A DNA stretch of 64,000 nt from an uncultured Planctomycetia bacterium (GTDB lineage: Bacteria > Planctomycetota > MHYJ01 > WSZJ01): NCBI GenBank assembly GCA_963706735.1, contig CAVPNQ010000072.1, positions 4,932-68,931 of the forward strand. The letters run 5' to 3'. Below the pieces are notes generated by a model. That model ran no database searches. It saw nothing but the letters and a program-made list of their open reading frames with translations, and was not told where the DNA came from. Below, piece by piece: positions 37,675 through 64,000 of the stretch (positions are counted from its first letter, which is position 1; the number at the start of each line of letters is the position of its first letter). The position numbers and the translations under genes were made by a program.

Positions 37675-37678
37675 ATCT

Positions 37679-39694: not shown

Positions 39695-39723
39695 GCGGGG
39701 ACGGCCCACGAGAAGAGGTTGCC

Positions 39724-40785: not shown

Positions 40786-40827
40786 CTGCCCATGCGCTGG
40801 CCCGGACTGCCCATGCGCTGGCCCGGA
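40786..40827. repeat. Exact 21-nt tandem duplication (tgcccatgcgctggcccggac x2)
   Basis: Read directly. Confidence 0.7.
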
Positions 40828-44504: not shown

Positions 44505-44514
44505 CCGTGTTCCC

Positions 44515-49100: not shown

Positions 49101-49544
49101 GGGGAAGCCGTCGTCGGCCCACTGCTTCCACATTTTGCGGATCATGGGGTAGCGGAGGCGGTACGGGCCGTACATGCGGCGCTGCATCGTGAACCCGTTG
49201 GAGCAGCCACGCGGGTTCCAGTTGACCGTGGCCTTGTTGCCGTAGAGGTCGCCGACGCGCCCGCTGTCGTAGTTCTGCTCGCTGCGGAGCACGACGCCAT
49301 TGCGGACGTACGCTCTCATGCGGCACGAGTGCGTGCAGTTCGGGGAGCACACCCAGGCGAAGCTCGAGTCGTACCGATACTGTTCGCGGTACACCTCTTC
49401 CCAGTCGCGCGCCGGGTAGGCCGCCAGCGGGTCGACGTCGGGAAACGGTTCGAAAGCCCCGAGCCTCAGGCCGCCCGAGGCCAGCCACGCGGCGCTTCCC
49501 GCAATTCCTGCGGACTTCAGGAAGTCGCGACGGTTAATGGCCAT
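46104..49544 (-). CDS. Molybdopterin (bis-MGD) catalytic alpha subunit of a periplasmic type II DMSO-reductase-family enzyme (NxrA/NarG-like, 1146 aa from the Tat-signal Met)
   Basis: Twin-arginine signal MAINRRDFLKSAGIAGSAAWLASG. NarG/NxrA-like N-terminus …WEEVYREQYRYDSSFAWVCSPNCTHSCRMRAYVRNGVV… with a C-x3-C-x3-C FS0-type motif. Size matches Nitrospira/Kuenenia NxrA (~1146 aa). Confidence 0.9.
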   Translation of the reverse strand: MAINRRDFLKSAGIAGSAAWLASGGLRLGAFEPFPDVDPLAAYPARDWEEVYREQYRYDSSFAWVCSPNCTHSCRMRAYVRNGVVLRSEQNYDSGRVGDLYGNKATVNWNPRGCSNGFTMQRRMYGPYRLRYPMIRKMWKQWADDGFPELTPDNHKKYKFDSRGTDELVKIAWDDAFKYLAKGVVHIMKKYSGEQGRKRLVDEGYPEEMLLYHENSGARVCKVRGGMGLLGVMGKYGMYRFGQGLALADAKIRGVGEHDAKGSRIWSNYTWHGDQAPGHPFVHGLQASDCDLNDFRYSKLHIQMGKNLIENKRADNHFFTECMERGAKIVVITPEYSPPASKADYWIPIRPNSDTALLLGITKLMMDENKYDADFVKRFTDFPLLVREDNLKRLQAKDVIKGYAAPDLSAGASFQIHGMTKEQRDRIGDFMVWDTKTNGPKVVTRDAVGGLFDSLGLDAALKGTFKVKTVDGKEIVVRPLFDLYKNIHLKDYDLDTVHEITRAPKELIRRLTDDIATIKPVAIHQGEGINHWFHATEANRASYLPLMLTGNIGLPGAGSHTWAGNYKAALFQGSTWTGPGFKGWVAEDPWHLNLDENADGKDIHAHAFTQDEEPAYWNYDDKPLLVETPGKGHKCFTGKSHMPTPTKFLWFTNVNLFNNAKWAYQMLMKTNTKIEMICSTDIEMTSSVEYSDLVFAANCWMEFQQYEVTGSCSNPFLQIWGRGIKPVYDTMDDPVILANASKAVGELIGEPRLTDLWKFTHEGKTEVYIQRLLDASTTTRGYKVKDINDGKYGEPGAALFLFRTYPRVPFYEQIKDNLPFYTPTGRLQSYNDEDEVIEYGENFIVHREGPEATPYLPNVIVSSNPWVRPESYGIPEDAMGVEERQVRNIKKPWSEVKNTKNPLWEAGFKFYCITPKSRHSTHSQWQVTDWQFIWNNQFGDPYRRDKRQAGVGEHQIHINPAAAKDMGIADGDYVYVDANPADRPYIGWKPDDPHYKVGRLMLRAKYNAAYPYSAVMMKHAPFIATEKSVKAHESREDGRAQSEGTGYQSSFRYGSQQSVTRGWLMPMHQLDSLFHKTKARMGFLFGGEADNHAVNTTPKETLVKITKAENGGLNGVGVWAPAASGFAPGGENDFMKKYMQGKVTRG

Positions 49545-50517
49545 GAATGCCCTCCTGAACCAGGTTGGAAGAGCGGGTCGCCACGGTCGGCGCGAACCGC
49601 GTGCGGAAGACGTAGGAGTCGAGGCACTGGCGGCACGCGCCATCGGCCGTATTCCAGGTCGGGGAATCCGCCTGGACCATGGCGAGGGTGGTGGCGGGAA
49701 GAGCGGCGGGGTTCTCGTGCCACTCGAAAGTGGGGAAGCTGCAGAGCGGGCAGAGGGATCCCGGGCCGCGCGGGCTCTCGTCCTGCCGGATCCCCGAGAA
49801 ACGAAGGAGTTTCCTGGGATCGAGGGCCAGTTCGATGAGCTGCGGCCAGGTCGCCTCGGGTGTTTCCCAGAGCCGGGTCAGGATGCGGTCGCGAGTGGCA
49901 GGGGGAAAGCCAGGGTAATTCCGCATGACCATCGTGCCCCATTCCTCGAGCGTCGCCGCGCCGAGCTTTCCCGAACGGGCGATGGCGCCGGCGGCGACGA
50001 GGTTCCAGAGGAGGCGGAGACGGGCCCGGACGAGATTCTCTTCGGCTGGCCGAGAGGCGATCCGGCCGAGCGCGCGGTAGACGAAGGCGGGCCGGAGCAT
50101 GTCCTCGACGTGGCGGAGCTCGTGGCGCAGGAATCCGGCGAGCGCGACTGGATCGTCGAACCGCTGGACGCGGATGCGAATGCGAACGTGAGGCTTGCCT
50201 CCGTCGCGCACGAGAAGGTCTGCCTCCTCGTCCGTCGCCGCCGCGCCGCGGTCGAGAATCAGCTCGTCAATCTGCGGTGCAATCGACGGGTAATCGGCGA
50301 CGGCGGTCTCGATCGGCCGGGCCAGGCCAAGGTGCCGGAAGAAAACGGCGTGGGCGTCGCGGAAGCGCGCCTCGCGCTCGGTGCCCTGGAGCGAGTAGAT
50401 CGGGTCGGACACGGCGTGCAGGTCTCGGGACGACGAAGCGTCCCCGGCGGCTTCGCGGCGAAGCACCTCGCGCGCGACCGCTTCTTCGAGCAACTCGGGG
50501 GCGAATCGAAGTTCCAC
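49537..50517 (-). CDS. Hypothetical protein (327 aa) with C-terminal CxxC…CxxC zinc-ribbon, encoded between the gamma and alpha subunits
   Basis: …CPLCSFPTFEWHE…ACRQCLDSY…. Stop abuts the alpha start. Confidence 0.55.
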
Positions 50518-50529: not shown

Positions 50530-52185
50530 TTATTTCAGGATGAGCCGATACCAGGTTGTGACGGACTTCTGGCCGGCACGGTCGCCCGCGGCGCCGTCCC
50601 ATACGGCGAAGGCCATCGGGATTTCCGTCCCCGCCTTCAAGGCGATGCAGCACGGGTCCGGCGGAGCGAAGGATCGGCCCATCTGCACCGTCCAGAGCCC
50701 TTCCTTCCAGGCGCCTTTGCCGGTGACCGACTGCTTGTCCGCCGCGAGGCTCGTGAGCGTGCCGAAGCCCGCCGCGACCGCGTCCTCGACGGGGGACTTG
50801 CGGTCGGGGTTGGAGAACGGATTGCCCGCGGCGCGCCCCGACTGGTACGCGGGGTCGTGGTTCGGCATCGCCGAAGGGTTGTTCCCCTTGTTCTCGTTCG
50901 TCCTGTCGCCCTTCTCGAACGGGTACATCTCCACCGACATCCCGGGGTGAATCCCCTCGACGTCCTGCCACTTCGCGAGGTCGATCTGCCAGTCCGCTTT
51001 CCACTGCCACAGGTTTACCGGCATCTTGGCCGAGCCCATCGTGACCGGCGTGTCGATCCCTTCGAGCGCAAACATCAGGGCGACGGCATCGCGGAAGTCC
51101 TCGGCGCGGAGCGGCGCGTGATTGTCGGCGCCGTCGAGCCAGGAGAGCTGGAACGCCACGGCGCTTCCGTCGTGCGCGGCCCGGACTTTCAGGAGGCGCG
51201 GCGCGGCGATGCGGCTGAAGAGCAGCTGGAGCGGCACCTCGACGGCCGGAATCGCGTCCCATGCGGGATCGGTCGGGTCCTTGGGAAGAGCCGCGACCTT
51301 CGTGGCGGGGAGCTGGCTTCCCGACGGAAGTGCGGCGGCGAAGTGCTTCGGCGCGTCGCCCGAGAGGCTCATGACGTAGTGAACGAGGCCCCAGCGTTCC
51401 TTGTCGGACATCTGGTCGGGGCCGTAAGCGGGCATCGGCGTGCCGGAGAGACCCGTGGCAAAGCGGAGGTAGACGTCCTTGGGGGTCGAGCCGCCGCGGA
51501 AGATACCCTGCGTGAAATCGTTCGGGCGGATCGGCTGGTCCGCGTCGTCCTTGAGATCGGCGGCCGAGGGGCCGTCAGCCCGGCCGGTTTCGCCGTGGCA
51601 CTTGACGCAGCTCATCTTGATGTACATGTCCTTGCCGATGGCGCGGGACTTGTCGTCATCGGCCGGCTCAGCGGGGACGGCGAGCGACTTGCCCTGGCCG
51701 CGCTCTTTGAAGTAGTTGTAGGGCGCGTCCATGTCCGGGTCCTGGAACTGGCTGAGATCCTTGATGTAGGCGATGAGCGCCTTGCGGTCGGCTTCGGGGA
51801 AGTGTCGCCAGGCCGGCATCGCTGTGCCCGGCATGCCGTTTACGAGAACGGCCATGATGTCTTCGTCGGTGGGGAGAGCCCCGCTCTCGGTTGAGCGGAT
51901 CTTGAACTTGCCTTTGGAGAAGTCGCGTGGGCGGGGCCAGAGAAGGTAGGCCGCCGTGCCGTCGCCGAGGCCCTTGAGCCCGTGGCAGACGGCGCAATTG
52001 GCCTCGAAGAGGAATTTGCCGGTGGCGTTCGCGTCGCCGCCCGGGTCGCCGCCGGCCCCATCACCACCGAGCGCCGACGGGACCGTTTTTTGCGGATCCC
52101 GAGGCTGGCAGGCGGACAGAGTGACGATGCAGAGAGCGCAGGCGGCGAAGGCCGCCAGTTTCCAGGCGTGAGTTCGACAGGGCAT
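50530..52185 (-). CDS. Lipoprotein diheme cytochrome c fused to an EB_dh-type heme-b domain (candidate gamma subunit of the oxidoreductase)
   Basis: Lipoprotein signal MPCRTHAWKLAAFAACALCIVTLSAC. Two CxxCH motifs (CAVCHG, CVKCHG). C-terminal ~250 aa resembles the ethylbenzene-dehydrogenase gamma / DOMON-like heme-b domain (…AFAVWDGAAGDRAGQKSVTTWYRL…). Confidence 0.75.
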   Translation of the reverse strand: MPCRTHAWKLAAFAACALCIVTLSACQPRDPQKTVPSALGGDGAGGDPGGDANATGKFLFEANCAVCHGLKGLGDGTAAYLLWPRPRDFSKGKFKIRSTESGALPTDEDIMAVLVNGMPGTAMPAWRHFPEADRKALIAYIKDLSQFQDPDMDAPYNYFKERGQGKSLAVPAEPADDDKSRAIGKDMYIKMSCVKCHGETGRADGPSAADLKDDADQPIRPNDFTQGIFRGGSTPKDVYLRFATGLSGTPMPAYGPDQMSDKERWGLVHYVMSLSGDAPKHFAAALPSGSQLPATKVAALPKDPTDPAWDAIPAVEVPLQLLFSRIAAPRLLKVRAAHDGSAVAFQLSWLDGADNHAPLRAEDFRDAVALMFALEGIDTPVTMGSAKMPVNLWQWKADWQIDLAKWQDVEGIHPGMSVEMYPFEKGDRTNENKGNNPSAMPNHDPAYQSGRAAGNPFSNPDRKSPVEDAVAAGFGTLTSLAADKQSVTGKGAWKEGLWTVQMGRSFAPPDPCCIALKAGTEIPMAFAVWDGAAGDRAGQKSVTTWYRLILK

Positions 52186-52246
52186 GCAGTGCCTCCTCGG
52201 GTAGTCCCTCGCGCCGCCGGGCGCGAACGGGACTCGAGCGCTGTGC

Positions 52247-52263
52247 GCAAACTTCGCACCCGC
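52247..52263 (-). promoter_or_regulatory. Possible sigma54-type promoter for the oxidoreductase operon
   Basis: Minus strand gGGtgcgaagtTTGCg shows GG/GC at the 12-nt spacing. The start codon is ~62 nt downstream. Weak -24 region. Confidence 0.3.
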
Positions 52264-52333
52264 TGAAATCATCGAATTCGAATAACGGACAGGGAAGTCC
52301 GTGGCAATTCGCGCTGGAGGTGCGCGAATTTAC

Positions 52334-52346
52334 TTAATGTCATTAA
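52334..52346. promoter_or_regulatory. AT-rich perfect palindrome TTAATG-T-CATTAA, flanked by GCGAATTCGC palindromes, in the divergent control region
   Basis: Read directly. The only strongly AT-rich patch in the region. Lies between the two divergent operons. Confidence 0.4.
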
Positions 52347-52668
52347 CTAAAGCGCTGTGCGAATTCGCGGCGCTTCGCGGAAATAACCAGCCTGTCCCCG
52401 ACCCCAACGCAGCCTTTCAAAAAAAAATAGCCCGGCGCCCCCGACCGGCGGGATCGGAAGCGCAGGGCCGGGCGGGAGGTCCCGCCCACGACTTTCCCCG
52501 GCCCGGAGGCCAGGGAGGGGTACCGAGGGCAATCCCGACGCCAACGCAAATCCAGTTCCCCGGCTCCTACGCTTGAAGGCGCTCTCAATACTGGGAAATT
52601 TTCCGCGCCCACTGCGGACAGCTCCATGCCGTTCTTCTCGAATCCACCTTTCTGTCGCGTGTGACCCG

Positions 52669-52684
52669 TGGTCCCTCGTTTGCG
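52669..52684 (+). promoter_or_regulatory. Possible sigma54-type promoter for the cupredoxin/oxidase operon
   Basis: tGGtccctcgtTTGCg shows GG/GC at the 12-nt spacing. The -12 GC lies ~50 nt upstream of the ATG at 52734. Confidence 0.35.
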
Positions 52685-52733
52685 GGACTGCCTTCGTCCT
52701 TTTCCTCGCTCGTTCCATTTCCGGAGCTGCGTG

Positions 52734-53501
52734 ATGCCACTCAAGTTCCTCGCTGTATCCCTCGCACTGCTCGCGGCCGCCGGATGCGGCGCCCCGGCTT
52801 CCCAAGGCGGTCCTGCTTCGCCGCAAGGTTCGAAAGGCGGCGACTTCCTGTGCGATGGAAGTGCCGGGGGGAGTGCGATCAAGGGCAAGATCACCTTCGA
52901 GGGTCCCGTGCCCGAGCCCAGGAAACTGGTTGTGGACAGCGACGCCCTCTGCGCTTCCCTCCACAAGGACGGACTGCTGGCCGAGGACATCAAGGTGAAG
53001 GACGGCGCGCTCGCGAACGTCTTCCTGTGGGTCAAGAAGGGCGTGACGGGGAGCTATCCCGCGCCCGCGGAAGCAAAGATCCTCACCCAGAAGGCCTGCC
53101 GTTACGAACCGCACGTCCTCGGCGTGCAGGTCGGGCAGCCGCTCGCGATCCACAACGAAGACGAGACGATGCACAACGTGCATTCGCTTCCGAAGCTGAA
53201 CGAAGAATTCAACTTTGCGCAGACGAAGAAGGGCGACGTCGCGACGAAGAAGTTCAGCTCGGCGGAGACGATGGTGAAGTTCAAGTGCGACGCGCACGGC
53301 TGGATGAGCGCCTGGGTCGGGGTGGTGAAGCATCCGTTTTATGCGGTGAGCGCCGAGGACGGGACGTTCGAGATCAAGGGGTTGCCGGCGGGCGAGTACG
53401 TGCTGGGCGCGTGGCACGAGAAGTTCAGGGCGCAGGAACTCACGCTCAAGGTCGGGGACAAGGACACGCAGACCGCGAACTTCACGTTCAAGGCCGAGTA
53501 G
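52734..53501 (+). CDS. Cupredoxin-like (amicyanin-type C-x2-H-x2-M) copper lipoprotein, copy 1
   Basis: Lipobox LAAAGCG. Ligand set H(NVH)…38 aa…CDAHGWM. C-terminal beta-sandwich extension. 50-55% identity to copy 2. Confidence 0.7.
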   Translation: MPLKFLAVSLALLAAAGCGAPASQGGPASPQGSKGGDFLCDGSAGGSAIKGKITFEGPVPEPRKLVVDSDALCASLHKDGLLAEDIKVKDGALANVFLWVKKGVTGSYPAPAEAKILTQKACRYEPHVLGVQVGQPLAIHNEDETMHNVHSLPKLNEEFNFAQTKKGDVATKKFSSAETMVKFKCDAHGWMSAWVGVVKHPFYAVSAEDGTFEIKGLPAGEYVLGAWHEKFRAQELTLKVGDKDTQTANFTFKAE

Positions 53502-53555
53502 GCCATTCCCTGGGAATCAGCCGGGGAATCCCGGCGCATTGCGAGGAGACCGGAA

Positions 53556-53852
53556 ATGTCGGGACACGCGCAGTCGGCGGCGCCTGCAGCGCACGGAGCG
53601 TCCAGCTACAAGACCTACTGGTTTGCGTGGCTGCTGCTCCTCATCCTGACGGTGCTCATGGTGCAGATTCACAACAAGGCCCTGTTGCTCACCGGCATCG
53701 GGATCAAGTCCACGATCATCTGCCTGTGGTTCATGCACCTGAAGCACGAGTCGAAGCTGCTTCTGTTCAGCGTGGCGCTCGGATTCGGGTTCGCCGTGTT
53801 CCTGTTCTTCCTGATCCAATTTGACGTGAAGGTCCTGACGGGGATCGCGTAG
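53556..53852 (+). CDS. Prokaryotic cytochrome c oxidase subunit IV family protein, copy 1 (98 aa)
   Basis: …YKTYWFAWLLLLILTV…FMHLKHE…. Two TM helices. Paralog of the gene at 59093. Confidence 0.7.
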   Translation: MSGHAQSAAPAAHGASSYKTYWFAWLLLLILTVLMVQIHNKALLLTGIGIKSTIICLWFMHLKHESKLLLFSVALGFGFAVFLFFLIQFDVKVLTGIA

Positions 53853-54205
53853 CCCGGAATGCCCGGCGAACACCAGCCCGGCGGGGGTGCGGCATTGTGG
53901 TCGCCCCCGGAGCAGGATCAGCGGACCCGCGAGTCCGCCGAAGCGTTCGAAACGGCCGGAACTTCCGGCGCCGCTGACGCCGCAAGTCCCTTTGTCACCA
54001 AGGGGAACGGGCGTTTCCGCGCGCGGTGCGGCATCCTTCGCAACCCTTCGGTCCGTTATGGTCCCGGGTTTGCGATTTTTCCTTGCCGTTCCGAGGCGGA
54101 TGTTGTCTTGTGACCCGCCCGTAACCATGCGGCGGACCTCAAAAACCAGCGGCTCGGCTTGCCGGAAAGCACCGGGCTTTTCCCCATCCAAGGAGGACGA
54201 TTTTC

Positions 54206-55009
54206 ATGCTTAAGACACCTCTTCTCGTGGCCTCGATTGTCCTGAGCGCTCTGCTCGTGGCGGGCTGCGGCGACAGCAAGAAGCCCGATGCTAACGGCAA
54301 TACCGGTGCGGGTGGCGGCGGTGGCGAAGGCGGCGGCGGCGGCGGCGCGGTGAAGACGGCCGACATGGCCAATGGCGCGGTCGTCAAGGGCGTCATCAAG
54401 TTCGACGGCACTCCTCCGACCGAGAAGGCCCTCGGCATCGACGGCGACGACTTCTGCAAGGGCCAGCACCCGGAAGGCCTCAAGACCGAGTACTACAAGG
54501 TCAAGGACGGCAAGGTCGCCAACTGCCTCGTCTACGTGAAGGATGGCCTCTCCGGCAAGTACGCGCCGGTCAACCCCAGCCCGGTGATCGACCAGAAGGG
54601 CTGCCAGTACCTCCCGCACGTCATCGGCGTCGTTGCGGGCCAGGACGTCATCATCAAGAACAGTGACTCGATCGCGCACAACATCCATGCGCTTCCCAAG
54701 AAGAGCCAGGAGTTCAACTTCGCGCAGACGAAGGCCGGGGAAGAGACGAAGAAGTCGTTCTCGTCGGCGGAAGTGCCTGTGAAAGTGAAGTGCGACATTC
54801 ACGGCTGGATGGGCTGCGTGGTCGGGGTGTTCAACCACCCGTTCTTCGCGGTGACGGGGGAAGACGGCTCGTTTGAGATCAAGGGTCTTCCGGCCGGGAA
54901 GTACAAGCTCGAGGTCTACCACGAGAAGTTCGGGACGCAGACGGTGGATGTCGAGGTGAAGGAGAAGGAGACGAAGTCCGTCGATTTCCCGGCCCTGAAG
55001 AGCGAATAA
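54206..55009 (+). CDS. Cupredoxin-like copper lipoprotein, copy 2
   Basis: Lipobox LVAGCG. Gly-rich linker. H(NIH)…CDIHGWM ligand set. Confidence 0.7.
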   Translation: MLKTPLLVASIVLSALLVAGCGDSKKPDANGNTGAGGGGGEGGGGGGAVKTADMANGAVVKGVIKFDGTPPTEKALGIDGDDFCKGQHPEGLKTEYYKVKDGKVANCLVYVKDGLSGKYAPVNPSPVIDQKGCQYLPHVIGVVAGQDVIIKNSDSIAHNIHALPKKSQEFNFAQTKAGEETKKSFSSAEVPVKVKCDIHGWMGCVVGVFNHPFFAVTGEDGSFEIKGLPAGKYKLEVYHEKFGTQTVDVEVKEKETKSVDFPALKSE

Positions 55010-55022
55010 GCAGCGAGGATTC

Positions 55023-55859
55023 ATGCACCGACGCAACAGGGGAGCGGTGACGCCGGTATTGCTGGCGTCGTTCATGCTGGTTTTCACCGTGATCACGGTG
55101 TGGATGTGGTTTGCCCGGGAGTGGCGGCCCGCCCAGATGAGCGTGCACTCCAAGGGCGTGGACAAGATGATCACGTACATCGTCGGCGCCGCGGGGTTCA
55201 TCTTCATTGTCGGGCACCTGGTGCTGTCGAAGTTCATCATGAACCGTTCGAAGCCGGACGGGCAGCCCTGGAAGCCGATGTCCCACGGGGCCGAGACGTT
55301 CTTCACGGTGGCGCCGGTGATCCTCATGGTGCTGGTCTCGGAAATCGGGACGATCGTGATCGGCGCGCCGGTGTGGAACGAGGTGTACACGCACGAGGCG
55401 GGCGACGTTGAGGTTGAGATCACGGGGATGCAGTACGAATGGGTGGCCCGCTATGCCGGGGCAGACGGCAAGTGGGGGAAGCGGGTGGTCGAGAAATTCG
55501 ACTCCGCGGACAATCCGCTCGCGCTGGACCCGAAGGACAAGGACGGGAAGGACGACATCGTGAGCCGCGGCGTGGTGGTCCTGCCCGCGGGCAAGCCGGT
55601 CTGGTTCAACATCCGCTCGTGGGACGTGCTGCACAGCTTCAACATCCCCGAGTTCCGCACGAAGCAGGATGCGGTGCCGGGCATCTACACGCACACGCGG
55701 GTCACGCCGCTCAAGCCGACCGAGAACGGGAAACCGATCGAGGTTGCCTGCGCGGAGATCTGCAACTTCGGCCACTACAAGATGAAGGCGAAGGTGATCG
55801 TGAAGACGCCCGAGGATTTCGCGAAGTGGCTGGAAACGACAACGAAGTTCGGCGACTAA
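55023..55859 (+). CDS. coxB: Heme-copper oxidase subunit II (CuA; no fused cytochrome c domain)
   Basis: Two N-terminal TM helices. …WDVLHSFNIPEFRTKQDAVPG…. CuA motif ACAEICNFGHYKM. Confidence 0.9.
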   Translation: MHRRNRGAVTPVLLASFMLVFTVITVWMWFAREWRPAQMSVHSKGVDKMITYIVGAAGFIFIVGHLVLSKFIMNRSKPDGQPWKPMSHGAETFFTVAPVILMVLVSEIGTIVIGAPVWNEVYTHEAGDVEVEITGMQYEWVARYAGADGKWGKRVVEKFDSADNPLALDPKDKDGKDDIVSRGVVVLPAGKPVWFNIRSWDVLHSFNIPEFRTKQDAVPGIYTHTRVTPLKPTENGKPIEVACAEICNFGHYKMKAKVIVKTPEDFAKWLETTTKFGD

Positions 55860-56008
55860 GCCGGGCCGCGGAAGAGTCTTCTGGAGTCTATGCCCGTCTC
55901 GGCCCGGCTTATCCTGAGCGAGCCCGTAGGGCGAGTCGAAGGATGCTGTTGAAGTAAGCGGGTGGCAAGGTAAGAGACTTACCCTTGTTCGCTTAGGGAG
56001 AGATCATC

Positions 56009-57769
56009 TTGGCGATCACGCATACGCACGGCTCGGACGCGTCGCACACGCACGACGACCATGGCCACGGACATGGCGACGGGCATGGGCACGACCACCA
56101 CACGCCCGGGTTCATCGGGAAGTACATCTTCAGCTTCGACCACAAGACGATCGGCATCCAGTACCTGCTGCTGGCGATGTTCATGAGCCTGATCGGCGTG
56201 GGACTGTCGTTCTGGTTCCGCGCGCAGCTGGCGTGGCCGGGCAAGGAGATGATGACTCCCGAGCAGTACGTCATGGCCGTCACGATGCACGGCACGATCA
56301 TGATCTTCTTCGTCGTGTCGGCGGCGCTCTCCAGCGGCCTGGGTAACCTGGCGATCCCGCTCCAGATCGGCGCGCGCGACATGGCGTTCCCGCTGCTGAA
56401 CATGCTGTCGTTCTGGACGAACGTCCCCGGTGCGATCCTGATGATCGCGTCGTTCTTCGTCGAAGGCGGCGCTTCCGCCGGCGGCTGGACGGCCTACCCG
56501 CCGCTCTCCGCGCTGCGCAACGCCGGCGCCGGGACCCACCTGGGCACGACGCTCTGGCTCCTCGGCATCGCGATGTTCATCGTGTCCTTCACCCTGGGCG
56601 GCCTGAACTACACGGCCACGATCCTGAACCTGCGCGCCCGCGGCATGAACCTCATGAAGATGCCGCTGTCCGTCTGGACCTGGTTCATCGCGACGCTGCT
56701 CGGCCTGCTCAGCTTCCCGGCCCTCACCGCCGGGGCGATCATGCTCCTCCTCGACCGCCACGGCGGGACGAGCTTCTTCCTCCCGAGCGGCCTGATCGTG
56801 TCCGGCACCCCGATGGCCAACGTCGGCGGAACCCCCCTCCTGTTCCAGCACCTGTTCTGGTTCCTCGGCCACCCCGAGGTGTACGTCCTCGTGCTGCCGG
56901 CCATCGGCATCGCCTTCGAGGTCATCCCCGCGTTCGGCCGCCGACCCGTCCACGGCTACAAGTGGAGCGTCTACGGGCTCATCATCATCGCCTTCCTCGG
57001 CATGATCGTGTGGGGCCACCACATGTTCGTGTCCGGCATGAACCCGTTCCTCGGCAAATACTTCTCCATCTCCACCCTGCTCATCACCGCGCCGTTCGCC
57101 ATCCTCGGCGTGAACCTCGTCGCCTCCCTCTGGAAGGCGCGCATCCGCTTCACGACCCCCATGCTCTTCGCCCTCGCCCTCGTCTCCGCCGTCGGCACCG
57201 GCGGCATCGGCGGCCTGTTCCTCGCCACCTCCGCCGCCGACCTCCACTTCCACGACACTTACTTCGTCGTCGGCCACTTCCATCTCATGATCGGCGTCGT
57301 CACCCTGACCGGGACCTTCGCCGGGATCTACTACTGGTTCCCCAAGATGTTCGGGCGCACCATGAACGACACCCTCGGCAAGCTCCACTTCTGGCCCACC
57401 ATGATCGGTACCTTCATGGTCTTCACCATCCAGCACTTCCAGGGCCTCGGAGGCATGACACGCCGCTACTTCGAGTACGGCCACGAGGTCTTCAAGCCCG
57501 TCGTCGCCCTCAACCACATGGTCACGATGTTCGCCTTCCTCGCAGGCGCAGGCCAGATCGTGTTCTTCGTGAACTTCTTCTGGAGCGCCTTCCGCGGACC
57601 CAAGGCTTCGCAGAATCCGTGGGAAGCGACCGGCATGGAGTGGACGACGGCGTCGCCCCCGGGGCACGGCAACTGGCAGGGCCCGATTCCTCCCGCGCCC
57701 GGGATTCCGTACCAGTACGCCACCGGCGCTGACGGGAACGGTTTCCGCATGCAGACCGAGAAGGATTAG
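56009..57769 (+). CDS. ctaD: Heme-copper oxidase subunit I with His-rich N-terminal extension
   Basis: TTG start with AGGGAGAG ribosome-binding site. 12 TM core with canonical His ligands (…HHMF…, …GHFHLMIG…, …WAHHMF-type). N-terminus THTHGSDASHTHDDHGHGHGDGHGHDHH. Confidence 0.95.
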   Translation: MAITHTHGSDASHTHDDHGHGHGDGHGHDHHTPGFIGKYIFSFDHKTIGIQYLLLAMFMSLIGVGLSFWFRAQLAWPGKEMMTPEQYVMAVTMHGTIMIFFVVSAALSSGLGNLAIPLQIGARDMAFPLLNMLSFWTNVPGAILMIASFFVEGGASAGGWTAYPPLSALRNAGAGTHLGTTLWLLGIAMFIVSFTLGGLNYTATILNLRARGMNLMKMPLSVWTWFIATLLGLLSFPALTAGAIMLLLDRHGGTSFFLPSGLIVSGTPMANVGGTPLLFQHLFWFLGHPEVYVLVLPAIGIAFEVIPAFGRRPVHGYKWSVYGLIIIAFLGMIVWGHHMFVSGMNPFLGKYFSISTLLITAPFAILGVNLVASLWKARIRFTTPMLFALALVSAVGTGGIGGLFLATSAADLHFHDTYFVVGHFHLMIGVVTLTGTFAGIYYWFPKMFGRTMNDTLGKLHFWPTMIGTFMVFTIQHFQGLGGMTRRYFEYGHEVFKPVVALNHMVTMFAFLAGAGQIVFFVNFFWSAFRGPKASQNPWEATGMEWTTASPPGHGNWQGPIPPAPGIPYQYATGADGNGFRMQTEKD

Positions 57770-57771
57770 CG

Positions 57772-58323
57772 ATGGCCCAGGCCTGGAAAGAGGACGGTTG
57801 GGAACGCGCGGTCGCCGCCGAGCGGCGCATCGACACGTTCCAGACCCTCACTTTCTTCATGGTCGGCGGCGCCATCATGCTGTTCACCTGCTTCACCGCT
57901 TCCTACCTCGTCCGGCGCGAAAGCGCCGACTGGGTCAAGCTCGCCCTTCCCCCCATCCTCTGGGTGAATACCGCCGTGATCGTCCTGAGCAGCCTGACGC
58001 TCGAGGCCGCACGGCTCGTCAAGCCCGCCGCGTCGCGCCGCTGGGTCGGCGTCACGATCGGGCTCGGCGTGGCGTTCGTCGCCGGGCAGGTCCTGGCGTG
58101 GCGGGAGCTGGCCCTGAAGGGCGTCTTCGCCACGACGGATCCGCACGCGTCATTCTTCTACATGTTGACGGGGGTCCACGCGGTGCACATCGCCGCGGGA
58201 ATCGCCGTGCTCGCGTACGCGTTCAGGCGCGCCGGAAGGGCCCCCCTGGGGCTCTGCGCGGCGTGGTGGCATGTCGTGGGGGCCGCGTGGGTCTGGGTGG
58301 CGGTCCTGATCTCGGTCCTCTAG
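57772..58323 (+). CDS. Cytochrome oxidase subunit III-like protein (short, 183 aa)
   Basis: …FYMLTGVHAVHIAAG…WWHVVGAAWVWV… matches COX3-family motifs. Confidence 0.7.
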   Translation: MAQAWKEDGWERAVAAERRIDTFQTLTFFMVGGAIMLFTCFTASYLVRRESADWVKLALPPILWVNTAVIVLSSLTLEAARLVKPAASRRWVGVTIGLGVAFVAGQVLAWRELALKGVFATTDPHASFFYMLTGVHAVHIAAGIAVLAYAFRRAGRAPLGLCAAWWHVVGAAWVWVAVLISVL

Positions 58324-58462
58324 AAAGTGACAGGCCGGGGGAGATCGAGTGTGCCCCTGGAGAAGAGATCCTTCGACTCGCTTCGCTCGCTCAGGATAAG
58401 CCGGGCCTGAGTGGGGCTTGTGGAAGTCGAAGGGCGGTTCCCGGCCCGGCTTAGGAGCGGCG

Positions 58463-59080
58463 ATGAGCACGACGGCAGTGGCGGAACATCATCACGATGC
58501 GGCGGACGAATCCGAACCCGGGTTTTACGGGACGTCGTGGCAGAAGCTGATGATGTGGTGGTTCATCATCGGCGACGCGATCCTGTTCGGGTCGTTCCTG
58601 GCCGCCTACGGGTTCGCGCGGATGTCGGTCACCAACTGGCCGGATCCCGCGAAGGTCTTCAGCATGAACTTCATCACCGTGATGACCTTCGTGCTGATCA
58701 CGTCGAGCGCCACGATGGCGACCGCGGTCGGCGCTTCCCGCGCCGGCAATCACAAGATGGCGTGCAACTTCACGATCCTCACCGCGATCGGCGGCCTGGT
58801 GTTCCTCGGGATGCAGGTCGTGGAGTGGTCGCACATGATCCACGACGGCGCCCGCCTGAACACGAACCCCTGGGGCGCGCCCGCCTTCTCGGCGTTCTTC
58901 TTCACCATCACCGGCTTCCACGGCTCGCACGTCCTCTCGGGCGTCGTCATCCTGCTCATCACGGCCATCAACGCCCTTCGCGGAAAATCCGGACCCGAAG
59001 GCGTCGAGCTCGCCGGGCTATACTGGCACTTCGTCGACCTCGTCTGGGTCTTCGTCTTCGGCACCTTTTACCTGCTCTAG
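58463..59080 (+). CDS. ctaE: Cytochrome c oxidase subunit III
   Basis: AGGAG ribosome-binding site. …FFFTITGFHGSHVLSG…LYWHFVDLVWVFVF…. Confidence 0.85.
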   Translation: MSTTAVAEHHHDAADESEPGFYGTSWQKLMMWWFIIGDAILFGSFLAAYGFARMSVTNWPDPAKVFSMNFITVMTFVLITSSATMATAVGASRAGNHKMACNFTILTAIGGLVFLGMQVVEWSHMIHDGARLNTNPWGAPAFSAFFFTITGFHGSHVLSGVVILLITAINALRGKSGPEGVELAGLYWHFVDLVWVFVFGTFYLL

Positions 59081-59092
59081 GAACCGCCACCC

Positions 59093-59374
59093 ATGAGCGA
59101 ACAGCACGCTGAGCACGCTTCACACGGATACAAGGGCTACTGGATCGCCTGGTTGCTCCTGCTGATCCTGACCGTGGTCATGATCAGCATCCACAACAAG
59201 ACCGTCCTCCTCGCCGGGATCGCGGTGAAGTCGATCGTGATCTGCATGTTCTTCATGCACCTGAAGTTCGAGCGCAAGATGCTCGTCTACAGCGTCGCGC
59301 TGGGATTCATTGCGGTGTTCGCGCTGTTCTTCTTCATCCAGTACGACGCGCAGCTCGGGAAGATCGGGCTTTAA
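59093..59374 (+). CDS. Prokaryotic cytochrome c oxidase subunit IV family protein, copy 2 (93 aa)
   Basis: …YKGYWIAWLLLLILTV…FMHLKFE…. About 60% identical to copy 1. Confidence 0.7.
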   Translation: MSEQHAEHASHGYKGYWIAWLLLLILTVVMISIHNKTVLLAGIAVKSIVICMFFMHLKFERKMLVYSVALGFIAVFALFFFIQYDAQLGKIGL

Positions 59375-59385
59375 GCCGCGGCTCC

Positions 59386-59673
59386 ATGAAGCGCCTCCTC
59401 TACCGGACGGCCCTCGCCTTCGCGCTGCTCCTGGCGTTCGCGCCGGCGGTGTACGCGGCGGACTGCTGAAAGCAGGCGCAGCCGGGTGCGGATCAGGTTG
59501 ATCCGAAGCGGACGCCGGGCTTCAAGCAGGGGACGGCGCTGATGATGGCGGTGCCGTACTTGCTGATGGCCGGCCTCGGGACGCTCGCGTGGCGCCAGTA
59601 CCGGCGCAAGCTCCGCTTCGAGGAGCGGGGCGGGTGGACGGATCCTGTCCCGGTGCGGCCGGACGCAGAGTAG
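59386..59673 (+). CDS. Small signal-peptide/C-terminal-TM protein with in-frame TGA directly after Cys (candidate Cys-Sec selenoprotein, 95 aa)
   Basis: ATG 12 nt after the subunit IV stop. MKRLLYRTALAFALLLAFAPAVYA-ADC-TGA-KQAQPG… continues in frame to TAG at 59671. TM helix AVPYLLMAGLGTLAW then a basic tail. Hairpin cggatc-aggtt-gatccg lies 20-38 nt after the TGA. Confidence 0.4.
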
Positions 59674-59682
59674 CCGCTCGGG

Positions 59683-62472
59683 CTATCGGGAAGCGCGCCG
59701 CGAGACCAGGAACAGCGCGAGCGCCCTTCCGGCCCCGACCTGGATCGCGCGGGCGCGGAGCTGGGTCGCCTTGCTGAGCTGGCGGCGGCCGGCGAAGACC
59801 TCGGCCATGAGCAGGTAGAGCTCCGCGGCGAGGTTCGGGGACATGCTGGTCGCGAAGGACCACAGCGACTCGAGCGGTTCCGAACCTGCGATGACCCCCG
59901 CGACGGGCGACCACTCGGGCACCGCCGCCACCGTCTCGGCCAGCCGCGAGATCGCTTCCTCTTGGCGGTTCATCCCCGCCAGCGCGGCGCATTCGAGCAG
60001 CACGCGGAACAGTTCCTGAAGCGACTTGCTGGCGGTGTACGCCGCCGCTTCGCGTTCGAGAATGGAGAGGCACTCCGTCGGGTTGCCGTCGAGAAGCGCG
60101 ACGAGGGCGAGCCAGTTGCGCGCCCAGGCGCCCTCGTTGGAGGGGTGGGTGGCGCCGCCCATGACGACGGTGAGGGAAGCGCGTGCGGCGCGGAGGTCGC
60201 CCTCGGCGACCTGGGTTTCCGAGAGGCGGAGCATGGTGAGCCAGCGGTCGCGGGCGGCGAGGTTGACGCTGAGCTGAAGGGTTTCCTGGAGTTCCAGGCG
60301 GCAGCGAGCGATCAGGTCCGGCGTGACGCCGGCCCGCGCGAGCGCCGCGTGGCACTCCATGCGCACCTCGACCGCGAATTTCTCGCGTCCCAGCTGCCGC
60401 ATCGCTTCGTCGCGCACGCGCGCCGGCCCGCCCAGCGTCCCGCAGAGCCGCAGCATTTCCGCGCACACCTGCGCCGCTTCCGTCGCGTCGAGCCACCGCT
60501 GGCGCAGCAGTTCCTGGTACATCGCCGCGGCCTTGTCGGCGGACTCGCGCTCCATGCGGTCGATCGTTTCGAGGAGCAGCGTCCAGAGCTCGATGCGGAC
60601 GGGATCGCCGGGGTACCGCTGGCAGCCTTCCTGGAGCGCGACGACGGCGTCGTACGTGTTTCCCGCCTTGAGCTCCAGGCGCGCCTGGCCGAGCGGGATC
60701 ACGGCTTCGAGCGGCGTCCCGTCGAGCTTCCTCAGCGCCTCGAGCGCCTCCAGCCGTTCGCCGAGTTCGATCGAGCACAGCGCCGCCTTGTAGTGCGCGA
60801 GCAGCCCTTCCTCGCGGTCCGGGTGCGTCTCTCCCATCTCCCGGTACATTTCGCGCGCTTCCGAGATCTTCCCGAGCTGGTAGAGCTTGTCTGGAAGCGC
60901 GAGGAAGGTGAGCTGGAGGGGGGCGCCGCGTCCCTCGAGCTTGACGTCGCGGAACGAAGCGCCTTCGTCGTCGCAGGAGAGGCCGACGCGGTCGCCGCGG
61001 AGGGGGAAGAGGTCGCGGTATTCGAGGGCGCGGACGCCGTTGATGGTGAGGCTGATGCGGTCGCCTTCGCGGAGGACGAGGATGCGGTAGCGCGTGCGTG
61101 CGGCGAGGCGGATATCGAGGCGGCGGACGGCGGCGACGCCGTGGCGGATGAGCTCGACGCGGCCTTCGGGGCCGGCGGCGAGGCGGACCTGGTAGCCCTC
61201 GAGGGAGAATCCGCCGCGGATGGCGAGCCAGACGGAGGCTTCCCATGTGCTGCGATCGACGTCGGCGGACAGCGTGAACTCGAGGCGGATGTCGCCGGTG
61301 ACGCGCGGCACGGCGACGACGCGCGCGGACTGTCCGCCGCCGCAGACGAGGTCGCGGCCTTTGCGCGACCAGCGGCCGCTCACCTGGTCCCAGGCTTCGG
61401 CGCCCTTGCCCTCGGACACGTCGCGCCACGGCACGCGCCCGGCGAGGAACTCATCCACCGCACGCGCCAGCTCGCGCGCCGTCGGGTAGCGCCTCGCGGG
61501 GTCCGCGTCCATCGCGTGCTCCACGATCTGGCAGAGCGCGCGGGGTGCGAAGCGCCCCGGGCCGCGCTTGTGGACGGGGGTGATTTCGCCCTTGAGGGTG
61601 GCGCGAAGGGCCTCGTCGGGGTCGCTGGTATCGACGGGGGGCTGGAGGGTGAGGATTTCGTAGAGGATGGTGCCGAGGGAGTAGACGTCGCTGGGGGGGC
61701 CGACGAGCGTGCCCATGCCGGCGGCCTGCTCGGGGGACATGTAGCCGGGGGTTCCCACGATGATTCCGTCGCGCGTCAGGCCGCCCTCCGCCGGCGCGAT
61801 GACCTGCTTCGTCTCCCCGCGCTTGCGCTTCTCCCCCAGCGTCCGCGCCAGCCCCCAGTCGAGGACGAGCACTTCGCCGAACTCTCCCAGCATGATGTTG
61901 CCGGGCTTGAGGTCGCGGTGGACGACGTCATTGAAGTGCGAGAACGCGATGGCCTCGCAGACGCGGGCGAACGCACTCAGAAGGGCATTGAGCGGCCAGG
62001 TTTCCTCTTCGCGCGGCTTGCGCTCGCGCAGTCCCTCGAGGATGTCGGAGAGGGGGCGGCCCTGGACGAGCTTCATGGTGTACCACGGTCCCCAGGTCTT
62101 GTCGTAGCCGAGCTGGTGGACGGGGACGATGCCGGGGTGGGCGAGGCGGCCGGTGACGATGGCTTCCTCGGCAAGGCGCTCGGCGAATTCGGCGGAGAAC
62201 ACGTCGGGGCGGAGGACCTTGAGGGCGACGTCGCGGTCGAGGACGGGGTCGTGGGCGAGGTAGACCGTGCCCATGCCGCCTTCGCCGAGGACGGAGAGGA
62301 TGTCGTACGTGCCGATCCGCGAGGGCTGGCCCTGCGGCATGGCCGCGCCCATGGCCTGCACGGTCGCGGGTTTCAGCGAGGACGGCGGCTGGCAGGTGTC
62401 GCACAGGCGCGACGGCTCGCCAGCCGGAAGCTCGGCGCCGCACTGCGGACAGCATGGGACGGCTTCGGGCAA
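59683..62472 (-). CDS. Hanks-type Ser/Thr protein kinase with N-terminal zinc-ribbon and C-terminal jelly-roll (DUF1080/LamG-like candidate) plus TPR-like helical repeats
   Basis: Putative TTG start before PEAVPCCPQCGAEL…CDTC. Kinase subdomains (VALKVLRP, HRDLKPGNIML, DWGLA, GTPGYMSPE). The R/P-rich upstream part of the six-frame ORF is rejected because the upstream paralog ends at 62547. Confidence 0.8.
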   Translation of the reverse strand: MPEAVPCCPQCGAELPAGEPSRLCDTCQPPSSLKPATVQAMGAAMPQGQPSRIGTYDILSVLGEGGMGTVYLAHDPVLDRDVALKVLRPDVFSAEFAERLAEEAIVTGRLAHPGIVPVHQLGYDKTWGPWYTMKLVQGRPLSDILEGLRERKPREEETWPLNALLSAFARVCEAIAFSHFNDVVHRDLKPGNIMLGEFGEVLVLDWGLARTLGEKRKRGETKQVIAPAEGGLTRDGIIVGTPGYMSPEQAAGMGTLVGPPSDVYSLGTILYEILTLQPPVDTSDPDEALRATLKGEITPVHKRGPGRFAPRALCQIVEHAMDADPARRYPTARELARAVDEFLAGRVPWRDVSEGKGAEAWDQVSGRWSRKGRDLVCGGGQSARVVAVPRVTGDIRLEFTLSADVDRSTWEASVWLAIRGGFSLEGYQVRLAAGPEGRVELIRHGVAAVRRLDIRLAARTRYRILVLREGDRISLTINGVRALEYRDLFPLRGDRVGLSCDDEGASFRDVKLEGRGAPLQLTFLALPDKLYQLGKISEAREMYREMGETHPDREEGLLAHYKAALCSIELGERLEALEALRKLDGTPLEAVIPLGQARLELKAGNTYDAVVALQEGCQRYPGDPVRIELWTLLLETIDRMERESADKAAAMYQELLRQRWLDATEAAQVCAEMLRLCGTLGGPARVRDEAMRQLGREKFAVEVRMECHAALARAGVTPDLIARCRLELQETLQLSVNLAARDRWLTMLRLSETQVAEGDLRAARASLTVVMGGATHPSNEGAWARNWLALVALLDGNPTECLSILEREAAAYTASKSLQELFRVLLECAALAGMNRQEEAISRLAETVAAVPEWSPVAGVIAGSEPLESLWSFATSMSPNLAAELYLLMAEVFAGRRQLSKATQLRARAIQVGAGRALALFLVSRRASR

Positions 62473-62546
62473 GTCTCGTTCCCCCAGGGGCCTCTCCGTG
62501 TGGCGCGGATTATCGCATTCCGCCCCGCGGAATTCAGACTGCGCTG

Positions 62547-64000
62547 CTACCGTGCACTGGCGAGTCTCCGGACGAACTCCCTTTCTCCGCCGATCGACAG
62601 CGCCTGCCGGCGGAGGCTCGTCGCGGAAGCATCCCGCTGCCGGGCCATCTGCAGCTCGGCGCCCGCGATGTAGAACTCGGCCTGGAGGTTCGGGGTGAGG
62701 CCGGCCGCGTACTTGTTGAACGCATCCATCGGCTCGCGGCCCGAGAGCGCGTCCATCACGGCCTTCCACTCCGGGTGCGCGCCTTCGCCCTCGAGCGACG
62801 GCACCAGGCGGTCGCGCATCCCCATCCACGAAAGCGCCGCCGCCTCGAGAATCGCGCCGATCAGGTGCTGCGGCTGCGGCGTCGCCGAATACTCCTTCGA
62901 GTGCGACGCCAGCGACGTCAGCGCCTCCTGCGGGCCGCTTCCCACGATCCAGCACAGCGCGAGCCAGTTGCGCGCCCAGGCGCCCTCGACGGACGGGTGC
63001 GGCGTCTCCTTCATGACGACGGAGAGCCAGCGGCGGGCGTTCTCGAGTTCGCCGGAAGCGATCAGGGTTTCGCAGAGCCAGAGGATGACGCGCCAGCGGT
63101 CGCGCTTGCCGAGGCGTGCGCCGAGGGCGAGGGTGGCGTGGAGCGCGAGCCGCGAGCCCTGGACGAGCGCGGGGGTCATGCCGGCGCGCGCGAGCGCCGT
63201 GTGGCACTCGAGGCGGACGGGGACGTTGTGCGGGTAGACGGAGAGGATGCGAAGCGACTCGGCGCGGATCTTCGGCTTGCCGCCCATGAGGCCGGCGAGC
63301 GCCATGAGTTCGGAGATGACTTGGCCGGTCTCGTGCGGCTCGAGCCAGGGCTCGCGGAGGAGCTGTTCGTAGAGGGAAGCGCCGAGCTCGGCGGACTCGC
63401 GGCTGACGCGGTCGGCCGTGGTCATGAGCAGCGTCCAGATCTCGACGCGGACGGGGGCGTCCACGAAGCGGCGGCAGCCGTCGCGCAGCGCTTCCCAGGC
63501 TTCCATGATGTTCTTGGAGCGGAAGCCGAGGCGGGCGCGGCCGAGGGCGGAGAGGGCTTCGAGCGTGGTGCCCTCGAGCTGGCGGAGTTCCTCGAGGGCG
63601 GCGTCGTTTTCGCCGAGCTCGATGGAGCAGAGGGCGGACTTGTATCGGGCGATGAGGCCTTCGTCGCGGTCGGGGTGGGAGAGGGCGAGTTCGCGGTAGA
63701 GCTCGCGGGCCTCGGTGAGCTGGCCGAGCTGGAAGAGCTTGTCGGGGAGGGCGAGGAACGCGAGCTGGAGCGGGGCGCCGCGGGTTTCGACCATGACGCG
63801 GCGGAGGAAGATCCCGGGCCCGTCGGCGGCGATGGCGACGCGGTTGCCGCGGAGGGGGAAGACGTCGCGGTATTCGAGGGCGCGTGCGCCGTTGATGAAG
63901 AGCGAGATGCGGTCTCCTTCGCGCATGACGAGGAGCTCGTAATCGGCGCCGGCGGACAGGCGCAGGTCGAGGCGGCGGATCGCGATCACGCCGTCCCGCA
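62547..64000 (-). CDS. Paralog of the kinase C-terminal region (jelly-roll + TPR-like), 3' part of a gene whose start lies beyond the window
   Basis: About 60% identity to the C-terminal half of the adjacent kinase (…PLQLAFLALPDKLFQLG…HPDRDEGLIARYKSALCSIELGE…). Frame is open to the window edge. Confidence 0.7.
   Translation of the reverse strand, partial: RDGVIAIRRLDLRLSAGADYELLVMREGDRISLFINGARALEYRDVFPLRGNRVAIAADGPGIFLRRVMVETRGAPLQLAFLALPDKLFQLGQLTEARELYRELALSHPDRDEGLIARYKSALCSIELGENDAALEELRQLEGTTLEALSALGRARLGFRSKNIMEAWEALRDGCRRFVDAPVRVEIWTLLMTTADRVSRESAELGASLYEQLLREPWLEPHETGQVISELMALAGLMGGKPKIRAESLRILSVYPHNVPVRLECHTALARAGMTPALVQGSRLALHATLALGARLGKRDRWRVILWLCETLIASGELENARRWLSVVMKETPHPSVEGAWARNWLALCWIVGSGPQEALTSLASHSKEYSATPQPQHLIGAILEAAALSWMGMRDRLVPSLEGEGAHPEWKAVMDALSGREPMDAFNKYAAGLTPNLQAEFYIAGAELQMARQRDASATSLRRQALSIGGEREFVRRLASAR

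Follow-up and report, generated by a model that had tools for sequence, protein, structure and literature searches.

Here, we describe a haem-copper oxidase cluster and its two cupredoxin-like lipoprotein genes in a 64-kb stretch of DNA from an uncultured Planctomycetia bacterium (hereafter the window; 64,000 nucleotides of contig CAVPNQ010000072.1). The cluster comprises eight genes on the plus strand (52734-59374). It opens with the lipoprotein gene cup1 (52734-53501; 255 amino acids), followed by su4a (53556-53852), which encodes an extra small subunit IV of 98 amino acids with about three transmembrane helices; its matches to COX4_pro and caa3_sub_IV both fall under the curated cut-offs of Pfam and NCBIfam, the sources of all our domain assignments. 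After a 353-nt gap comes cup2 (54206-55009), encoding a second lipoprotein cupredoxin of 267 amino acids and ending 13 nt before coxB (55023-55859; subunit II, with COX2 and CoxB matches). The remaining genes are ctaD (56009-57769; A1-type subunit I, COX1 440 bits), a short subunit III-like gene (57772-58323; 183 amino acids, about five transmembrane helices; aa3_CtaE_Actin E = 3e-13, under the curated cut-off), ctaE (58418-59080; subunit III of the five-helix type, 220 amino acids; COX3 E = 5e-16, with CyoC and QoxC-like matches) and, at the operon end, a second subunit IV gene, su4b (59093-59374; COX4_pro 31.4 bits, over the cut-off). These open reading frames and their COX2, COX1, COX3 and COX4_pro/caa3_sub_IV matches reproduce the gene identities and order of an original prediction made from the letters of the window. 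Amino acid identity between paralogues is 44% for cup1 and cup2, 61% for su4a and su4b, and 30% for the short subunit III-like gene and ctaE. CoxB had been predicted to carry a CuA centre and no fused cytochrome c, which agrees with the motif found (H-x34-CAEICNFGHYKM) and with the absence of CxxCH from the protein.

Both lipoproteins share one architecture: the linker leads into an N-terminal beta segment, then comes a type-1 cupredoxin domain resembling amicyanin, and a beta-sandwich closes the protein. AlphaFold2 models built from an alignment of 34-35 sequences reached a mean predicted local distance difference test score (pLDDT) of 86.4 and a predicted template modelling score of 0.78 for cup2 (86.2 and 0.79 for cup1), and in each protein show about 25-30 residues behind the lipobox as a disordered linker. 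Comparison of the two models with the PDB by Foldseek matched the central 90-100 residues to amicyanin, plastocyanin, the purple cupredoxin of Nitrosopumilus, pseudoazurin, CuA domains and a NirK domain, with target-normalised template modelling scores of 0.65-0.81 to small cupredoxins. Structure prediction (pLDDT 86 in both) with fold matches to amicyanin and plastocyanin upholds the cupredoxin fold that had been read from the sequence. The signal peptides end in lipobox-like AAGC and VAGC sequences; all 34 homologues keep this Cys, which predicts a lipid anchor, and the C-terminal beta-sandwich is a Pfam CarboxypepD_reg match, so that the lipobox and beta-sandwich originally assigned to each protein are both present. 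Some 70 structured residues precede the cupredoxin domain and hold an invariant Cys pair (C84/C133 in cup2), which probably forms a disulphide joining the N-terminal segment to the cupredoxin domain. Outside the type-1 site, C84, C133, H138, D154, H161 and E189 (cup2 numbering) are invariant in the 34-sequence alignment on which residue invariance was judged; H161 varies among wider homologues.

The putative copper ligands are H147, C185, H188 and M191 in cup1, and H158, C196, H199 and M202 in cup2, the latter aligning with H53, C92, H95 and M98 of Paracoccus amicyanin (hhalign). In both proteins the His-to-Cys spacing is exactly 38 (H147/C185 and H158/C196), and both share the motif HN-x-H ... 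C-D-x-H-G-W-M, with the loop reading CDAHGWM in cup1 and CDIHGWM in cup2. This is the complete type-1 set with amicyanin spacing (H-38-C-x2-H-x2-M) that had been claimed. The four ligands are invariant across the 34 sequences, and in a wider tally of 247 homologues 246 keep all four: 243 match HN...C-x2-H-x2-M, three have another residue after the first His, and one lacks a ligand. Such conservation sustains the cupredoxin assignment. Judged from sequence and models, cup1 and cup2 are cupredoxin-fold proteins with a type-1 ligand set, and would be expected to bind copper.

The family to which they belong is large and poorly annotated. For the window pair, Pfam returns CarboxypepD_reg and a single sub-threshold Cupredoxin_1 match (in cup1), and any cupredoxin-family match was obtained for only 4 of the 34 homologues. 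NCBI names these proteins "carboxypeptidase regulatory-like domain-containing protein", while IMG names them "plastocyanin". By word-indexed search cup2 has more than 1,553 relatives, and a full scan of 1.84 billion representatives with a hidden Markov model (HMM) gave 4,098 clusters at E ≤ 1e-30, a count that also takes in long CarboxypepD_reg repeat proteins and tandem-fused double copies of the cup family. Scanning one genome per species located the family in at least 597 species; the best 80 loci, each from a different species, belong to Acidobacteriota, Planctomycetota, Gemmatimonadota, Ignavibacteria/Kapaibacteria/Bacteroidota, Verrucomicrobiota, Omnitrophota, Marinimicrobia and others. 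Literature searches aimed at the lipoprotein family returned nothing specific to it; a lead on a Caldithrix "plastocyanin" was dropped, as it concerns genes elsewhere in the Caldithrix genome. The family is a clear candidate for a new Pfam/NCBIfam model.

In these 80 loci, whose neighbouring genes were located by tblastn with the window proteins as queries, coxB or ctaD lies directly 3' of cup on the same strand in 29, and an A-family oxidase lies within 10 kb (≤10 kb) of cup in 12 further loci, giving 41 in total. Gene order differs between groups. In loci of Planctomycetota, Thermoanaerobaculia and Gemmatimonadota cup precedes coxB; in those of Bacteroidota, Ignavibacteria, Verrucomicrobiota, Omnitrophota and Marinimicrobia it precedes ctaD, with coxB last; and in two loci (L089 and L090; L-numbers label the relative loci compared with the window) it sits between coxB and ctaD. 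The CuA motif C-x-E/Q-x-C-x3-H-x2-M is present in all 42 linked CoxB matches but one, which a contig end cuts, and none of the 42 carries CxxCH or a fused cytochrome c domain. An A-family oxidase was absent within 10 kb from the other 39 of the 80 loci, and their neighbours were clustered, with Pfam-confirmed assignments, in the 33 with usable flanks. There, the gene after cup encodes the haem A synthase COX15/CtaA in 23 loci, often accompanied by CtaB (16), DUF420 (9) or SCO1 (3). Guilt by association of this kind argues strongly that the cup family belongs to the aa3 oxidase system. The comparison with related oxidase operons that had been proposed for the window shows the cup-oxidase linkage to be conserved across phyla, which backs a functional tie between the two. 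The arrangement is real, yet widespread and poorly annotated rather than peculiar to the source genome.

What the lipoproteins would do in such a system is best framed as electron transfer. With its N-terminal lipid, followed by some 30 disordered linker residues, tethering it to the outside of the cytoplasmic membrane, the cupredoxin would accept single electrons from a periplasm-facing donor and hand them to the CuA centre of CoxB, so filling the role that a soluble, tethered or fused cytochrome c plays in other aa3/caa3 oxidases. We consider it somewhat more probable than the alternatives taken together (roughly 0.55) that a lipid-tethered type-1 copper protein of this kind carries electrons to the CuA of a CuA-only aa3-type oxidase. 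In the source genome, the nearest candidate donor would be the dihaem-c/haem-b lipoprotein of the adjacent nitrite oxidoreductase (NXR) operon, described below; alternatively, electrons could come from a quinol-oxidising complex encoded elsewhere. If the lipoproteins are indeed donors, a large share of the aa3-type oxidases of Acidobacteriota, Planctomycetota, Gemmatimonadota, Ignavibacteria/Bacteroidota, Verrucomicrobiota, Omnitrophota and Marinimicrobia would not rely on cytochrome c as textbook models have it. In metabolic reconstructions from metagenome-assembled genomes (MAGs), the putative carrier currently bears a wrong name, that of a "carboxypeptidase regulatory-like" protein.

Several considerations weigh against a carrier role. 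The extra N- and C-terminal beta domains of the family are not accounted for by such a role. Sorting of lipoproteins to the inner or outer membrane is not predictable for Planctomycetota. Our view is also limited to the window, and other cytochrome c donors may be encoded elsewhere in the genome; indeed, the original wording that the oxidase is fed by cupredoxins "instead of cytochrome c" goes further than the locus does, as the neighbouring operon encodes a lipoprotein that is a dihaem cytochrome c. Finally, linkage to ctaA, ctaB, SCO1 and DUF420 would suit a role in assembly or stabilisation equally well. The main rival explanation builds on this last point and holds that the cupredoxins are oxidase assembly or stabilisation partners, delivering or buffering CuA copper or protecting the CuA domain, which would be compatible with a carrier role. 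In at least 23 loci, what cup heads is not a set of structural genes but a cluster for haem A synthase, haem O synthase, DUF420 and SCO1, and the invariant residues H138, C84/C133, E189 and D154 outside the type-1 site could make another site. In addition, AcoP, the cupredoxin of an Acidithiobacillus oxidase operon, is reported to maintain oxidase activity, and a stabilising role was proposed for it (PMC10804444). Against this, a complete type-1 site of Cys, two His and Met, conserved almost throughout and with a ligand loop as short as any known, is an electron-carrier hallmark, and cta clusters commonly mix structural and assembly genes, so that the linkage does not discriminate. Furthermore, copper chaperones of the same fold (PCuAC, CopC and CupA) use Met/His-rich sites rather than the Cys/2His/Met type-1 arrangement, which likewise counts against an assembly function. 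We regard a role confined to assembly or stabilisation as unlikely, if still the most serious competitor of electron transfer to CuA.

Turning to the oxidase itself, CtaD is of A1 type because GHPEVY is present; WGHHMF, HFH, MHG and the D-channel motif DMAFPLLN were also found, so that the six His ligands, cross-linked Tyr, glutamate and Asp/Asn of an A1-type enzyme are all in place. The canonical K-channel Lys of helix VIII is absent: around residues 360-372 the window protein reads APFAILGVN where references read VPTGIKFFN, replacing Lys by Leu and Thr by Phe. Among 41 cup-linked CtaD proteins from 40 loci, this position is Lys in 17, Leu in six (a Planctomycete clade), and Ile or Phe in 18. 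Proteins with the Lys replaced occur in L017, L019, L034, L069, L082 and L084, as well as in a second large clade with Ile or Phe there (e.g. L029, L045, L048, L061 and L072), and all 41 keep HPEVY or YSHPAVY together with the D-channel motif. Ahead of its first transmembrane helix, the window CtaD carries a His-rich N-terminal tail (THTHGSDASHTHDDHGHGHGDGHGHDHH; encoded in 56009-56100), which may bind metal; His-containing tails are much shorter in relatives.

The original prediction had suggested that the paired cupredoxins, subunits IV and subunit III-like proteins could be alternative isoforms. For the subunit III-like pair, synteny rules this out. The short subunit III-like gene is a conserved partner in L017, L019, L034, L063, L084 and L089, and single-copy operons in these loci carry both subunit III-like genes. 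On this comparison, the subunit III-like pair is a constant of the operon type.

For the cupredoxins, the idea of isoforms remains reasonable. The closest relative of the locus, L082, has cup2 and cup1 genes each 89% identical to those of the window, in full synteny that includes cup1, su4a and the gap. In L087 and L088, a cup1-type gene (64% identical to cup1) lies directly before a cup2-type gene (60% identical to cup2), followed by coxB and ctaD; both loci lack su4a and NXR and share the same sensor-kinase neighbourhood. The pair of cup1-type and cup2-type genes, with all ligands intact, hence recurs in L082 and L087/L088, and a cup1-type gene stands alone in L083. A recent tandem duplication of cup is ruled out by the 44% identity of the copies and by the orthologous pairs in L087. 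These comparisons indicate that cup1 and cup2 represent an old, conserved paralogy with both copies under purifying selection, and the two would probably serve different donors or conditions. By contrast, su4a is present in L082 and absent from L084 and L087, and judging from these genomes is specific to the lineage of the window and L082.

One could also read cup1 and su4a as the decaying remains of an oxidase operon that was duplicated and then lost its genes from coxB through ctaE, with the gap as its old upstream region and only cup2 functional, as a cupredoxin gene followed by a subunit IV gene resembles the two ends of such an operon and su4a is missing from L084 and L087. Yet both genes are intact, and their comparison with L082 shows 94-96% identity at codon positions 1 and 2 and 66-76% at position 3. 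Since the third position is the least conserved, cup1 and su4a are under purifying selection rather than decaying. Moreover, cup1 keeps its lipobox and all ligands, and a cup1-type copy has been retained beside a cup2-type copy in L087/L088 and on its own in L083. We consider the remnant scenario very improbable, and an old paralogy of two working cupredoxins the better account.

The gap between su4a and cup2 falls into two parts. In the 5' part (53853-53972; 120 nt), identity to L082 is 62%, at or below that of third codon positions (66-82%). It includes the palindrome CCGGAACTTCCGG at 53956-53968, exactly where it had been noted, of which the window holds one exact copy. As the mark of a hairpin or promoter, however, this palindrome is not plausible and we rejected it as a regulatory site: it is disrupted in L082, a 6+1+6 palindrome is expected by our own estimate about 0.1-0.7 times per 350-nt gap at 65% GC and so is not above chance, and a loop of a single nucleotide is too short for a hairpin. 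The 3' part (53973-54205; 233 nt) is 86% identical to L082. As this exceeds the 66-82% of third codon positions, it is likely to be a constrained promoter, leader or other regulatory region for cup2-coxB. An internal regulatory region in this conserved part, rather than at the palindrome, is thus plausible from the alignment, and would probably control a second transcription unit, cup2 to su4b, on the plus strand. Within an invariant block of it lies a weak sigma-54-like element, TGGTCC-N5-TTTGCG (TGG-N9-TTGC; 54059-54074), which has three mismatches to the consensus and is not above chance, the window not being enriched for such sites; two sigma-54 activators are encoded upstream. A sigma-70 promoter scan of 52200-59700 found no sites, and a terminator scan of the same interval gave weak, mostly intragenic matches, none of them convincing. 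Rfam yielded no match at E ≤ 1 in 52200-54300, and RNA folding of the conserved gap block was marginal (z = -1.9).

A second intergenic region (52273-52733) separates the oxidase cluster from the NXR operon, which is transcribed divergently on the minus strand. It is 80% identical to L082 with invariant blocks of about 100 nt, and contains an A-run followed by a GC-rich hairpin, a terminator-like site on the minus strand (52448-52432).

The first gene of the NXR operon, which is NxrC-like (50530-52272, with the likely true start Met at 52185), encodes a lipoprotein (lipobox LSAC) with two Cytochrom_C domains and an EB_dh (haem b) domain. Next come orf327 (49534-50517; a conserved protein of 327 amino acids with no Pfam family), nxrA (46104-49643; likely start 49544), an open reading frame of about 90 amino acids (MPEKESEQDDPLEF...; 45803-46075), nxrB (44515-45789; Fer4_11 ferredoxin subunit) and a gene for a NarJ-like chaperone (43740-44630; Nitrate_red_del), all on the minus strand. 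NxrA matches the Kuenenia protein (7b04_B) over its full length with 1774 bits and carries a twin-arginine translocation-type RRDFLK motif; its nearest named relatives are from Planctomycetota MAGs (80-84% identical), with Nitrospinaceae at 67%. Taxonomy was read from the nearest relatives of NxrA and CtaD, as cluster names gave no information. By these sequence marks, the molybdenum enzyme is a genuine periplasmic NXR of the type II dimethyl sulphoxide reductase family. The product of orf327, which has a HELRH (HExxH-like) motif and CxxC pairs, is found at the same position in L082, L084, L085 and L086, and the small open reading frame between nxrA and nxrB is also called in L084, L085 and L086 (90-96 amino acids).

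Upstream of the NXR operon, a cluster of regulatory and transport genes (33830-43436) encodes a sigma-54 response regulator, a formate/nitrite transporter, a protoglobin-sensor histidine kinase, a Usp protein and a GAF-PAS histidine kinase; most of this group recurs beside the oxidase in L087 and beside NXR in L084. Directly downstream of the oxidase operon, the minus strand encodes two paralogous Ser/Thr protein kinases in tandem (59683-63207 and 62547-63989), whose C-terminal regions are rich in TPRs and which are also present in L082. No tRNA genes were found within the 64-kb window.

As an alternative to isoforms, the original prediction had raised a possible supercomplex with the molybdenum enzyme. 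Synteny of NXR and oxidase is seen in three genomes: the window, L082 and L084, the last being a groundwater Planctomycetota MAG (NxrA 84% identical) in which NXR stands back-to-back with an oxidase operon of one cup gene, one subunit IV gene and both subunit III-like genes. This divergent arrangement, together with the nitrite/formate transporter and sensor kinases close by, might suggest that the cupredoxins are general periplasmic carriers for NXR or other periplasmic enzymes, with proximity to the oxidase reflecting co-regulation only. The wider sample speaks against this, as an NxrA homologue was found in none of the 80 other-species loci, most of which have linkage to an oxidase or to oxidase biogenesis. 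L087 is an oxidase island with both cupredoxins and no NXR; conversely, L085 and L086 have NXR with no adjacent oxidase and no cupredoxin in the examined flanks. These three loci speak against an obligatory NXR-oxidase coupling, and we think it highly unlikely that the cupredoxins serve NXR rather than the oxidase.

Donation to the oxidase does not preclude a contribution of the NXR operon as the electron source, for which the dihaem-c/EB_dh lipoprotein is the nearest candidate. Its gene holds the same position in the NXR operons of L082, L084, L085 and L086. The same domain architecture is also encoded directly upstream of cup-coxB-ctaD in loci without NXR from other phyla (L047, L053, L067 and L068), and in L008, a short contig on which neither oxidase nor NXR is seen, it lies downstream of cup on the opposite strand. 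As the protein recurs beside cup without NXR, it is a plausible general electron-input partner of the cupredoxin/oxidase module, and in the window it would additionally form the physical link to NXR.

Taken one step further, the locus may describe a lineage of non-anammox Planctomycetota with a compact aerobic nitrite-oxidising chain, in which electrons would pass from NXR through the dihaem-c/haem-b lipoprotein and the cupredoxin to the CuA of an aa3-type oxidase without the canonical K-channel Lys; more broadly, the dihaem-c/EB_dh protein and the cupredoxin could represent a widespread, unrecognised input module of A-family oxidases. We offer this as a tentative proposal that is more probably wrong than right by a good margin. 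If true, it would add a new lineage of nitrite oxidisers and define genetically how electrons travel between a periplasmic NXR and a terminal oxidase, which to our knowledge has yet to be settled for Nitrospira-type NXR. With NXR adjoining the cluster, a path from nitrite oxidation, or nitrate reduction, into the oxygen-reducing branch is open to test.

Components of this locus can be set beside known systems. The molybdenum enzyme resembles the periplasmic NXR of Kuenenia, Nitrospira and Nitrospina (PDB 7b04) in its full-length alpha subunit match, NxrB, NarJ-like chaperone and EB_dh haem-b subunit. It differs in that EB_dh is fused to two cytochrome c domains in a lipoprotein, and in that its operon, here in a non-anammox Planctomycetota MAG, runs divergently from that of an aa3-type oxidase.

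Blue-copper donors to terminal oxidases are well known, as in plastocyanin (cyanobacterial aa3), sulfocyanin (SoxM of Sulfolobus), halocyanins and auracyanin (alternative complex III). Like the arrangement suggested here, these put a type-1 cupredoxin, in several cases anchored by a lipid or a helix, in the place of cytochrome c as periplasmic or extracellular carrier to a CuA-containing oxidase; they are, however, of other cupredoxin subfamilies, architectures and taxa, and none has CarboxypepD_reg flanks. Among solved cupredoxins, the best sequence match is the purple cupredoxin Nmar_1307 of Nitrosopumilus maritimus (PDB 5fc9; E = 1e-4), which shares the C-x2-H-x-W loop but has Arg at the position of the axial Met of the window family and is a single domain of 95 residues. 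Amicyanin (MauC of Paracoccus) has the same ligand spacing as the window proteins and a similar first-ligand motif (M-P-H-N-V-H versus M/A-H-N-V/I-H), and is among the best structural matches, with marginal sequence similarity (HMM E 0.03-0.1; hhalign probability 58%). It is a soluble protein of 105 residues that accepts electrons from methylamine dehydrogenase and donates them to cytochrome c-551i, in contrast to the window cupredoxins, which belong to an oxidase operon and are lipoproteins of 255-267 residues with extra domains. Among the window open reading frames scanned no mau genes were found, and the window cupredoxins are not amicyanins in the functional sense.

By gene position, the closest precedent is AcoP, the "cup" gene product encoded directly upstream of coxB in the rus operon of Acidithiobacillus ferrooxidans, which binds the oxidase and takes electrons from a dihaem cytochrome c (PMC10804444). 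AcoP and the window cupredoxins are alike in that a gene for a cupredoxin, binding a single copper in AcoP and predicted to do so in the window, lies right before coxB in an A-family operon with subunit III and IV genes, in that the protein has the classical His/Cys/His/Met set, and in that a dihaem cytochrome c is encoded near. AcoP is membrane-attached with a periplasmic domain, and the lipobox of the window proteins would predict the like for them. They differ in the anchor, a transmembrane helix in AcoP and a predicted lipid in the window; in the ligand loop, C-x6-H-x4-M with a green site in AcoP and C-x2-H-x2-M in the window; and in the flanking beta domains of the window family, AcoP being without CarboxypepD_reg. 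PDB sequence and fold searches with the window cupredoxins did not return AcoP (7Z3B), and we detect no homology between them beyond the fold. Nor are the organisms of the window type known acidophilic iron oxidisers, unlike that of the AcoP system. In Gemmatimonadetes MAGs, rus-like oxidase (COX) clusters have also been described in which COX3 is duplicated and the cytochromes c are others, and "Cup" has served as a name for membrane-bound cupredoxins of COX operons (bioRxiv 10.1101/2020.03.01.968255; PMC8239418). Set against these systems, the lipoproteins of the window add a new member to the known cupredoxins encoded in oxidase operons, and the duplication seen in the window matters less than how widely their family occurs, the recurrence of a dihaem-c/EB_dh partner and the back-to-back NXR.

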